A stretch of DNA of 32,000 bases from an uncultured Bacteroidota bacterium (lineage in GTDB: Bacteria > Bacteroidota > Bacteroidia > Bacteroidales > GWA2-32-17): contig CAILUD010000010.1 in NCBI GenBank assembly GCA_903837285.1, forward strand, positions 5,031 through 37,030, written 5' to 3'. The position numbers and the translations under genes are program-made. This document shows, piece by piece, positions 11,714 through 13,039 of the stretch (the stretch's first letter is position 1; each line of letters starts with the position of its first letter). Below the pieces are notes generated by a model. The model made no database searches. It saw only the letters and a list, made by a program, of their open reading frames with translations, and was not told the DNA's origin.

Positions 11714-12007
11714 CTAACAACAGGAAGAACCTTCACCACAGCTACAATCAGGTTCAGTGCCGTTTATAAAACCTATAATTATCCCGGCAGCACAACCAAC
11801 TCCCGTTTGAACGTTAATTGCATTTTCGGGACAGTTTTTCTGGCATGCGCCACATTCCATGCAAAAGTCTTTATTTATAATGTTAGATTTTTTGTTTTTT
11901 ATTTCGAAAACATTATGCGGACAAACAACAAAACACATTGAGCAACCTGTACATTTTTCTATGTCAAGTTCAAGAGTTGTAACGTTTTTTATATATGTTA
12001 ATGTCAT
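11714..12007 (-). CDS. hgcB: Mercury methylation ferredoxin HgcB (2x[4Fe-4S])
   Basis: 97 aa. Two CX2CX2CX3CP clusters (CTGCSMCFVVCP, CMECGACQKNCP). The diagnostic CMECGA motif is at nt 11846-11863, checked by hand translation. There is an additional lone Cys (GVGCAAG) and a Cys-rich tail ending ..CSCGEGSSCC. It starts 9 nt after hgcA. Confidence 0.88.
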   Translation of the reverse strand: MTLTYIKNVTTLELDIEKCTGCSMCFVVCPHNVFEIKNKKSNIINKDFCMECGACQKNCPENAINVQTGVGCAAGIIIGFINGTEPDCSCGEGSSCC

Positions 12008-12016
12008 CTGTTTCTT

Positions 12017-13039
12017 TTATATAAATCGAAGAATTATCCATGTAATTAATCCTATAACAAATAACCCAATTTGAATTGGTAACGCAATTCTCATTTCTTT
12101 TTTTACTCCAGAGAGTGAAGTAAATGTTGAAGCTCCGGTAAAATTCATTGCTGTAAATGAAGCAATTGCCAAATTTATAAAAAACCAGGAAATAATTTCA
12201 GGAACATTATTACCATTTAAATTTAATAAAGTAATTATAGTTGTATAAACAGCACCTAGAATTAATCCTTTAAACGAAAAATTACTAATGGGGATATACG
12301 GTAAAAGTGCAGGTGTTATTATGGTTCCAATAATATATGCTCCACCTAAATTTGTTAAAATAATATGAAGATAATTCCAACCATCGTCAATTGAAAATCC
12401 ATTTTTGCTTAAGCAGCTAATAATAAATAAGGATGAAAAGAGTATTAACCAATATTTAAAATTCATTACAATTTCAACAGGGGTTAAAATAAGTCTGTCA
12501 TAAAAACCAAAATTAACAGTCCTCATTTTTTTATCAGCTTTGAAATTATTGGAAATAAATTCTCTAATATCTGATGCTTTTACTGGTCCGTACTTAATGT
12601 TAAATCCTGTTTCTTTTTTTACTTCGTGAGCTGAAATGCCGACTGCGCCAAGCTGAGGCACAATTATTCTTTTGTGTTCAACTAAATTATTTAATGACAA
12701 ATCATTAATTTTTGAAATAAGTTCTTTTGTGCCAAAAGTTCCTTTTCCTGCAGCACACCATACATTTATACCCTTAGTGTTTAGAATCAAAATCCAAGCA
12801 TTTATTCCTGTCAGATTTTTTCTTAAATGATCGAAACTTAGTTTATAATTAGAGGTTACAAAAACTTCTGAATTCTTATCAGGATTTCCAACAGCGTATA
12901 TACCAGGTGTTATTTTGTAATTATTTCTGTTAATTGACCATCTGGCCATTATAGTTCCTAAGTAATCACGCAATTCTAGTTTAGTTGAAACAACTGGGAT
13001 AGCTTTTTCGGAATTTATATAATTTGTAACAAAATACAT
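12017..13039 (-). CDS. hgcA: Mercury methylation corrinoid protein HgcA
   Basis: 340 aa. The N-terminal CFeSP-like corrinoid domain carries the exact cap-helix signature NVWCAAGK (Cys95, nt 12743-12766, checked by hand translation). The surrounding context is YAVGNP..VFVTSNYKLSFD..WILILNTKGINVWCAAGKGTFGT. The C-terminal half has about 4-5 TM helices. Confidence 0.92.
   Translation of the reverse strand: MYFVTNYINSEKAIPVVSTKLELRDYLGTIMARWSINRNNYKITPGIYAVGNPDKNSEVFVTSNYKLSFDHLRKNLTGINAWILILNTKGINVWCAAGKGTFGTKELISKINDLSLNNLVEHKRIIVPQLGAVGISAHEVKKETGFNIKYGPVKASDIREFISNNFKADKKMRTVNFGFYDRLILTPVEIVMNFKYWLILFSSLFIISCLSKNGFSIDDGWNYLHIILTNLGGAYIIGTIITPALLPYIPISNFSFKGLILGAVYTTIITLLNLNGNNVPEIISWFFINLAIASFTAMNFTGASTFTSLSGVKKEMRIALPIQIGLFVIGLITWIILRFI

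Follow-up and report, generated by a model that had tools for sequence, protein, structure and literature searches.

The stretch analyzed here (the window) comprises 32,000 nucleotides (nt) of contig CAILUD010000010.1, positions 5,031 to 37,030, from assembly GCA_903837285.1 of an uncultured Bacteroidota bacterium. It encodes hgcA and hgcB, the gene pair with which anaerobic bacteria convert inorganic mercury to toxic methylmercury. The two are predicted to be the last genes of a compact operon of five. The first gene encodes a regulator of the ArsR/SmtB family. The second and third encode a cysteine-rich membrane protein and a CcdA-like membrane protein, together referred to as the accessory pair. 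The gene order is arsR, the Cys-rich gene, the ccdA-like gene, hgcA, and hgcB, all on one strand and separated by 15, 3, 0, and 9 nt. The features of the locus are listed below in the direction of the genes, numbered from the first letter of the window.

14540..14556, minus strand: terminator-like hairpin and T-run (CAAGGTCTACAACCTTG ATTTCCTTTT), after the upstream M23 peptidase gene
14419..14448, minus strand: perfect palindrome AAAATATGTCG-N8-CGACATATTTT, with 11-nt arms that are 100% complementary, just upstream of arsR
14072..14410, minus strand: arsR, ArsR/SmtB family, probably 112 amino acids (aa) from the ATG at 14410; the longest open reading frame (ORF) reaches 14443 and encodes 123 aa
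13739..14056, minus strand: gene for the Cys-rich protein, 105 aa, single-pass membrane protein with 13 cysteines and four CC pairs
13040..13735, minus strand: gene for the CcdA/DsbD_TM-like protein, 231 aa, with cysteine pairs in transmembrane (TM) segments TM1 (C34-C35) and TM4 (C151-C152-N-P; also C148)
12017..13039, minus strand: hgcA, 340 aa, with a corrinoid-binding domain (approximately residues 1-165) and five TM helices (179-339)
12743..12766, minus strand: cap-helix motif NVWCAAGK of HgcA, with Cys95 as the predicted lower axial cobalt ligand
11714..12007, minus strand: hgcB, 97 aa, ferredoxin with two [4Fe-4S] clusters, beginning 9 nt past the hgcA stop codon
11846..11863, minus strand: CMECGA, motif of the second Fe-S cluster of HgcB, residues 49-54
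11672..11698, minus strand: hairpin GTCAGTCT/AGACTGAC, a perfect inverted repeat of 8 base pairs (bp), 16 nt past the hgcB stop codon

The 340-aa protein was matched by the curated model NF040863 (HgcA_corrinoid) with a score of 428.1 bits against a cutoff of 275 (E = 2e-128), residues 14-339 covering positions 1-324 of the 325 in the model. NVWCAAGK fits the cap-helix consensus N(V/I)WCA(A/G)GK, and its residues N92, V93, W94, C95, A96, A97, G98, and K99 were unchanged across 24 homologs. The protein contains two cysteines, C95 and C209, and no others. An AlphaFold2 model based on the 24 homologs had a pLDDT (predicted local distance difference test) of 82.4 and consisted of an alpha/beta domain followed by helices at residues 179-208, 217-244, 254-271, 279-304, and 309-339. 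The helices were mostly at pLDDT 80-94 and the hydropathy peaks concurred with them. The model thus has the defining HgcA architecture, with the corrinoid domain first and five long helices after it. A search of the PDB found no structure of HgcA. Large-subunit structures of the corrinoid iron-sulfur protein (CFeSP) were matched (2h9a, 4c1n, and 4djd) with E values of ~1e-10 across residues 15-165.

The Pfam family matching the N-terminal half of the protein was CdhD (E = 4e-13), and relatives are named "acetyl-CoA synthase subunit gamma" or "CO dehydrogenase/acetyl-CoA synthase delta subunit" in databases. Both are what would be expected if the 340-aa protein were a non-methylating HgcA-like paralog, that is, a relative of the fused HgcAB-like proteins or a subunit of CFeSP/acetyl-CoA synthase. 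This is very improbable, as the curated model cutoffs ruled out both identities. The fused HgcAB-like model NF043039 scored 200 bits, below its cutoff of 285, and the acetyl-CoA decarbonylase/synthase gamma model scored 77 bits, below its cutoff of 306. In the alignment with CFeSP the sequence ...VLTAWAAGKF occupies the position of the cap helix, so that the 340-aa protein has its cysteine in place of the CFeSP threonine region. The five-helix membrane domain and the adjacent HgcB also contradict a paralog, and no further Wood-Ljungdahl genes were found in the window.

HgcB was matched over its full length by NF040864 (HgcB_ferredoxin) with 122.9 bits (cutoff 99, E = 4e-36), and Pfam Fer4 families matched it as well. 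It has two CX2CX2CX3C clusters, C19/22/25/29 and C49/52/55/59, and CMECGA in the second fits the consensus C(M/I)ECGA. The lone C72 lies in the sequence VGCAAG and is equivalent to approximately Cys73 of Pseudodesulfovibrio mercurii ND132. The C-terminus reads ...DCSCGEGSSCC and ends in the vicinal cysteines C96 and C97. An earlier note on this DNA had located the 340-aa and 97-aa ORFs, NVWCAAGK, and CMECGA, and all four positions proved exact to the nucleotide. Its naming of the products as HgcA and HgcB is borne out by the curated model search that it had proposed, in which both proteins scored above cutoff, and by the motifs, domain architecture, gene order, and tree placement. It had also described hgcA and hgcB as separate genes, which agrees with the stop codon and spacer between them and with the failure of the fused model.

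HgcA identical to that of the window was already present in NCBI, JGI, ENA, and Logan, on contigs of up to 139 kb, from samples that include the "BUCK21" freshwater metagenomes; in JGI it is annotated as "hypothetical". At least 597 relatives of HgcA were found in GTDB genomes, where the best species representative was a Bacteroidales metagenome-assembled genome (MAG) with 57% identity and the species of the window itself did not appear. HgcA of the Bacteroidia/Bacteroidetes MAGs GWA2_31_9, GWA2_32_17, and CG23 was 63-67% identical, and HgcA of Desulfitobacterium, Desulfosporosinus, and Desulfobacula was 46-50% identical. A neighbor-joining tree was constructed from 124 HgcA sequences. In it the window protein grouped with that of one other locus (L085; sampled loci carry L numbers) beside a KSB1 sequence (L029), and these were jointly sister to a large Bacteroidales clade. 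This placement, a check that the earlier note had proposed, sets the window protein within the Bacteroidota HgcA radiation.

Bacteroidota hgcAB as a kind is well documented and is not new. Bacteroidetes HgcAB has been reported as monophyletic and as the largest source of hgcA transcripts in a thawing fen, with isolates in the Paludibacteraceae and Marinilabiliaceae. Bacteroidetes accounted for 13% of hgcA coverage in Lake Mendota, and a survey from 2026 placed Bacteroidota among four phyla that jointly hold 43% of hgcAB carriers. The pair described here adds one freshwater Bacteroidia lineage to a phylum that is one of the main carriers, which is of use to reference sets of hgcA but no surprise. 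At the level of the phylum it shares its HgcA radiation with the hgcAB of other Bacteroidales (Rifle GWA2_31_9 and GWA2_32_17, CG23, vadinHA17, and Paludibacter jiangxiensis NM7), and the five-gene operon of GWA2_31_9 and GWA2_32_17 is identical to that of the window. The window nevertheless represents a distinct lineage, and its locus is without the arsC, acr3, and thioredoxin_3 genes found beside many relatives. With known hgcAB in general the pair has in common the cap-helix Cys motif, the corrinoid domain with five TM helices, the ferredoxin with two [4Fe-4S] clusters, lone Cys, and terminal CC, and the gene order. It differs from them in that HgcA is without the N-terminal PCUGP/CC extension and is ~45-50% identical to HgcA of Desulfobacterota and Firmicutes.

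The stop codon of the ccdA-like gene and the ATG of hgcA are adjacent codons in one frame (TAAATG, 13037-13042, minus strand), which points to coupled translation and not to a fusion or to recoding of the stop. Among relatives this junction ranged from an apparent overlap of the ORFs as called to a gap of ~100 nt, with outliers that contain intervening genes. A Bacteroidales MAG has a 150-aa ORF between the ccdA-like gene and hgcA that splits the unit (L014:1851-2303); its N-terminus (MPQSLSKVYVHITFGTKHRYPF...) was judged by eye to be like an IS200/IS605-type transposase. In another locus (L139:4516-5566) hgcA seemed to be split into three short ORF fragments, with the accessory pair upstream and hgcB downstream intact, and a pseudogene or an assembly error is possible.

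The hairpin and T-run at 14540..14556 are predicted to mark the 5' boundary of the arsR-hgcB unit. At the other end, a region of 117 nt containing the hairpin at 11672..11698 gave a folding z of -2.83. The consensus terminator scan did not flag this hairpin and no T-run directly follows it. It is likely the 3' end of the operon, within the convergent gap shared with ychF. Elsewhere in this gap, at 11518-11592, a second hairpin is flanked by a perfect inverted repeat of 12 nt (ATAAAATAGCCC/GGGCTATTTTAT), which is probably a bidirectional terminator. No riboswitch or known RNA was found in the operon leader, where the sole match was a chance microRNA match to the palindrome.

The five-gene unit was intact in every copy of the contig and in GWA2_31_9, GWA2_32_17, and a lake relative with 79% identity. 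In GWA2_31_9 and GWA2_32_17 the unit sits in flanks that differ from those of the window, and because of these different flanking genes it appears to move as a cassette. Downstream of hgcB in GWA2_31_9 (L165, GCA_001768975.1, 5411-7191) there were genes for a 169-aa protein, an ArsC of the low-molecular-weight protein tyrosine phosphatase (LMW-PTP) type, a Thioredoxin_3 protein (PF13192, ArsE-like), and a second ArsR. The upstream flanks in this MAG contained a ThsB_TIR gene and a gene for a caspase-like peptidase.

The regulator encoded by arsR was matched by NF033788 (HTH_metalloreg) with 64.8 bits (cutoff 55) and by PF01022 (HTH_5) with 37.7 bits (cutoff 22). Its cysteines, in the numbering of the 123-aa ORF, are found in the motifs CTSC (C49/C52) and CYC (C91/C93) and in a C-terminal CC. 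The protein was called at 112-113 aa in cluster members and relatives. Its true start is probably M12, the ATG at 14410, with the first 11 codons of the long ORF (14411-14443) forming the candidate operator. A seemingly conserved ArsR N-terminal peptide of several loci, MSYVCDI, was reinterpreted as the conserved DNA palindrome read as protein.

The -7 promoter consensus of Bacteroidota is TAnnTTTG, and the sequence TATGTTTG (14430..14437) at the center of the palindrome fits it. The 20-nt core of the palindrome, ATGTCGTATGTTTGCGACAT, was identical in four loci (L011, L022, L038, and L137); HgcA was 50-54% identical to that of the window in the three of these for which a figure was available. 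Approximately 20 further loci matched the core with no more than four substitutions, mostly at 0-40 nt from the start of the arsR ORF. A sigma-70 promoter scan was uninformative for Bacteroidota. Judged from the sequence, the palindrome is probably the promoter of the operon and a candidate ArsR operator, a repressor site overlapping the -7 box being the simplest reading of it and the binding itself a prediction. It may serve as a candidate ArsR operator/promoter for Bacteroidales hgcAB operons.

ArsR-like regulators have been reported upstream of hgcAB, including in Bacteroidetes and Rifle MAGs, and experiments in P. mercurii ND132 showed that such a regulator controls hgcAB. The ArsR2-hgcAB locus of ND132 (Goni-Urriza 2020; Gionfriddo 2023) likewise has a gene of the ArsR/SmtB family upstream on the same strand, a likeness of family and position. 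This placement is consistent with the predicted co-transcription and repression in the window, as in ND132. The window differs from ND132 in having two genes between arsR and hgcA and, as its candidate operator, a palindrome that overlaps the -7 box.

These two genes encode the accessory pair. In the Cys-rich protein one hydrophobic segment was detected, and the layout is DCGC...CCKPK, KKR, a TM helix at residues 30-48, and a tail with three CC pairs. It had no match to a Pfam or NCBIfam family. In a collection based on position, 85 loci had a homolog immediately ahead of the ccdA-like gene, and these homologs share the pattern DCGCx(2-4)CCxPKK...TM...SSCCPKK. The CcdA-like protein was matched by Pfam DsbD_TM (PF02683) with 37.8 bits (cutoff 27.1) and by DsbD_2 with 30.6 bits, and six TM segments were predicted. 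Across its family C35 and C152-N-P were invariant and C151 was conserved in at least 90%; the second cysteine of TM1 gives CC or CxC. The AlphaFold2 model (pLDDT 70.5) had CcdA 5vkv as its best PDB match (Foldseek probability 1.0, TM-score 0.40); being of moderate confidence, it served for fold assignment only and not for cysteine geometry. The protein thus has a fold and family in common with the TM domain of CcdA/DsbD (5vkv), with six TM segments and functional cysteines in TM1 and TM4. It departs from CcdA in its doubled catalytic cysteines (CC/CxC in TM1 and CCNP in TM4), its Cys-rich single-pass partner, and the company of hgcAB, acr3, or arsM. Canonical CcdA proteins in two unrelated loci (L039 and L046) had the usual single-Cys PC motifs.

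The sole NCBIfam match of the CcdA-like protein was ArsG (NF040495), an efflux permease for organoarsenicals, with 24 bits against a cutoff of 200, residues 18-230 aligning to positions 6-223 of 225. ArsG (Chen, Zhang & Rosen 2019) is similar in size and aligns over nearly its full length, and homologs of the CcdA-like protein occur in ars-type operons. The score lies far below the cutoff and membership of ArsG was rejected. Neither accessory protein had a Pfam or NCBIfam match to a mer transporter family (MerT, MerC, MerF, MerE, or MerP). MerP, MerT, and MerF of mer operons are thiol-relay transporters of Hg(II). The accessory pair is like them in chemical logic only, having vicinal or paired cysteines inside a TM helix and on either face of the membrane, as would suit the passing on of a thiophilic metal. 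No sequence relationship was found.

The gene company of the accessory pair was examined in two samples. The GTDB sample consisted of the best 80 hgcA loci of the at least 597 relatives, and the metagenome sample of 80 JGI loci from a search for the CcdA-like protein with an alignment of six sequences. The metagenome loci were chosen via the accessory pair, and for the distribution of the pair over the hgcA tree only the GTDB loci are unbiased. In the GTDB sample, 9 of the 28 Bacteroidota loci had the pair immediately ahead of hgcA, and it was also present in one Phycisphaerales and one Chloroflexota locus. The pair-bearing HgcA proteins form one large Bacteroidales clade and the branch of the window in the tree. 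A second clade of Bacteroidales and Ignavibacteria HgcA has the arrangement arsR-arsC-hgcAB without the pair. Starting from the CcdA-like gene in the metagenomes, hgcA was directly downstream in 50 of the 60 loci with visible downstream sequence; the Cys-rich gene was upstream in 54 of 68 loci and arsR in 37 of 47. No literature linking the pair to hgcAB was found, and studies of hgcAB neighborhoods cite arsR, arsC, acr3, and arsM. No joint mention of hgcA and "cytochrome c biogenesis" was found in the literature either, and hgcA and DsbD were mentioned together in one paper, a review of the selenoproteome. The pair is apparently undescribed as an accessory to hgcAB.

The upstream pair might instead be an ordinary CcdA thiol-disulfide shuttle, for cytochrome c maturation or a similar purpose, that lies beside hgcAB by accident. 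The DsbD_TM/DsbD_2 and CcdA matches fit such a shuttle, as does the name "cytochrome c biogenesis protein CcdA" in databases. Versions of the Cys-rich protein in a Phycisphaerales locus (L027:4538-5254) and a metagenome locus (L145:597-1205) have an extra extracytoplasmic domain of ~150 aa, inserted after the TM helix and ahead of the CC tail. By eye this domain is like a thioredoxin fold, but no Pfam or NCBIfam family matched it. An accidental neighbor is unlikely given how regularly hgcA follows the CcdA-like gene, the alternatives being acr3 or arsM and not cytochrome genes, and the pair stays with hgcAB where the surrounding chromosome differs. The single-Cys PC motif of canonical CcdA is replaced by CC/CxC and CCNP. 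As to a thioredoxin-like CxxC partner, the conserved neighbor is the Cys-rich single-pass protein with its tail, which had no match to a thioredoxin family. A redox-shuttle mechanism that serves the Cys-rich partner is possible.

Taken together, the locus is read as genuine hgcAB orthologs at the distal end of an ArsR-controlled operon of five genes, with a probability of roughly 0.85, and the organism as a predicted, not a demonstrated, Hg(II) methylator. The following mechanism is proposed. In membrane-anchored HgcA, Cys95 of the cap helix would ligate cobalt, and methylcob(III)alamin would give its methyl group to Hg(II). HgcB would re-reduce the corrinoid and would probably handle Hg(II) via its lone Cys and C-terminal CC. 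We infer the methyl transfer and the corrinoid reduction from the established biochemistry of HgcAB. Transcription of the operon would start at a Bacteroidota-type promoter with its -7 box within the palindrome, the most likely binding site of the ArsR-family repressor, and expression of hgcAB would be under metal(loid)-responsive control. The accessory pair would most likely work through its thiols, as a relay or permease whose thiophilic substrate or product could be Hg(II), methylmercury, or trivalent arsenicals.

Several points weigh against this reading. Co-transcription, ArsR binding, and use of the promoter stand as predictions. The AlphaFold2 model of HgcA had low confidence in the cap helix itself, with pLDDT below 50 for residues 92-99. 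The neighbor-joining tree was midpoint-rooted, without bootstrap and without references from confirmed methylators. According to the literature Hg methylation has been experimentally confirmed in no member of the Bacteroidales, and nothing newer was found. HgcA is without the N-terminal CC/CU (Cys/selenocysteine) extension, an in-frame TAA directly preceding the ATG and no cysteine preceding C95. In ~8 loci acr3 or arsM, not hgcAB, follows the accessory pair, so that the substrate of the pair may be arsenic rather than mercury.

The N-terminal extension was described in most HgcA proteins by Haft & Gwadz. Among the GTDB hgcA loci (L005-L084) a CC/CU/CxC extension was present in 31 of 50 non-Bacteroidota loci, compared with 2 of 29 Bacteroidota loci, both of the latter apparently spurious. 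The CU forms, with selenocysteine, were seen in Desulfobacterota-type loci. The extension is not essential, since some genera with confirmed methylators belong to lineages that lack it, and it is a common and not a defining feature of HgcA. A hidden extension with selenocysteine or CC was rejected for the window HgcA, as the codon before the ATG is TAA and not TGA and no Cys motif lies upstream. The N-terminal CGC/CC of the Cys-rich protein resembles the CC/CU extensions of HgcA. The idea that the accessory pair replaces the missing extension was supported only in part: loci that bear the pair lack the extension, and many loci have neither.

The genes that follow the pair in place of hgcAB were identified in several loci. 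An ACR3-type N-terminus was found in L104, L106, L121, L144, L150, and probably L102, and the L106 protein was confirmed as ACR3 (448 bits, cutoff 283). In L140 the pair is followed by an arsenite methyltransferase (363 bits, cutoff 263). Elsewhere, an ArsC-ArsM fusion (ArsM 338 bits, cutoff 263) was encoded upstream of the accessory pair and hgcAB (L023:3684-4919). An operon of this kind would carry two metal(loid) methylation systems. Look-alike ORFs with an ArsC N-terminus of the LMW-PTP type were seen upstream of the pair and hgcAB in L031:3698-4930 and L034:471-1865, the ORFs of L023, L031, and L034 encoding 410-464 aa. Two other loci (L005:3525-5514 and L013:3518-5513) had genes for a small ferredoxin and three Cys-rich soluble proteins (285, 138, and 150 aa) preceding arsC-hgcA, and the same block precedes the accessory pair in L121:1530-3616. 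The company of the pair, mostly hgcAB and otherwise acr3 or arsM, lends independent genomic support to the proposed link between arsenic handling and mercury methylation.

This company also bears on the native function of HgcAB. True hgcAB orthologs could natively act on another substrate, either within a metal(loid) operon of the ars type or as a dehalogenase that uses a corrinoid, with Hg methylation a side reaction or negligible in vivo. Such a role is conceivable but doubtful. The ArsR-family regulator at the head of the operon speaks for it, together with the ACR3 and arsenite methyltransferase genes that the pair precedes elsewhere, the ArsC-ArsM fusion of L023, and a count over 81 sampled loci, of which 22 have arsC upstream of hgcA and 27 have acr3 no more than 3 kb away. 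In the literature, hgcAB of ND132 responds to arsenic and S-adenosylhomocysteine, and a preprint from 2026 describes dechlorination of carbon tetrachloride by HgcAB. These observations are compatible with Hg methylation and do not exclude it. The 32-kb window itself contains no arsC, acr3, or arsM gene, and an alternative substrate has been shown for no Bacteroidota HgcAB. To our knowledge nearly all cultures with hgcAB that have been examined methylate Hg. One published account gives eight of nine methanogens as Hg methylators.

In the accessory pair, the CcdA-like protein has doubled cysteines within two TM helices and its partner has cysteine pairs on either side of the membrane, a layout that would suit thiophilic species undergoing ligand exchange. 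The occurrence of the pair with acr3 and arsM, which it precedes in other Bacteroidales, argues against its being specific to mercury. Tentatively, the pair could be a dedicated thiol relay or permease that feeds HgcAB or removes the methylated product, with hgcAB of this clade as an interchangeable output module of an ArsR-controlled metal(loid)-handling operon, although the odds are against it. If true, it would be the first operon-encoded transport partner of the mercury methylation enzyme and a pointer to the long-sought native role of HgcAB. The operon bears on how Hg(II) arrives at cytoplasmic HgcAB and on what HgcAB evolved for. The conserved unit offers concrete genes and a DNA site for questions of uptake or efflux and of regulation.

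The host is a low-GC (~31%) freshwater Bacteroidia bacterium, an assignment that follows from named relatives ("Bacteroidia bacterium", GWA2_31_9) and from neighboring genes typical of Bacteroidota. The window also encodes SprB repeats, a TonB-dependent receptor with a CarboxypepD_reg domain, and the housekeeping proteins LepA and YchF. The GC content was 29-34% over the operon and 25-36% over the window (~31% overall), and these matching ranges ruled out a compositional anomaly or island at the operon. A Pfam scan of the window ORFs that encode 100 aa or more found no mer genes, including merA, merB, and merR. The earlier note had held that this is not a mer resistance island and that ychF is convergent about 240 bp away. 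The surrounding Bacteroidota chromosome agrees with the former, and the distance was measured as 243 bp between the end of ychF (TIGR00092, 351 bits), whose stop codon ends at 11470, and the stop codon of hgcB. Its description of the neighborhood as ordinary chromosome stands as regards the absence of an island, but hgcAB ends an arsR-led operon of five genes with two Cys-rich membrane proteins. The genome had further been called T9SS-bearing, for the type IX secretion system. Three proteins with a T9SS C-terminal sorting domain were found in the window with Pfam (4077..4895, 16576..22161, and 25887..28598). These are secreted cargo and not secretion machinery, and the description holds for the cargo only.

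Two further transport genes in the window are apparently unrelated to the operon, namely a cation efflux gene of the CDF family (5247-6209, minus strand) and a LysE-type translocator gene (22432-23064, minus strand). The protein encoded at 16576-22161 on the plus strand, preceded by a 174-aa ORF without a family match, is a large secreted protein of 1861 aa with a CUB domain and a weak T9SS C-terminal sorting domain.

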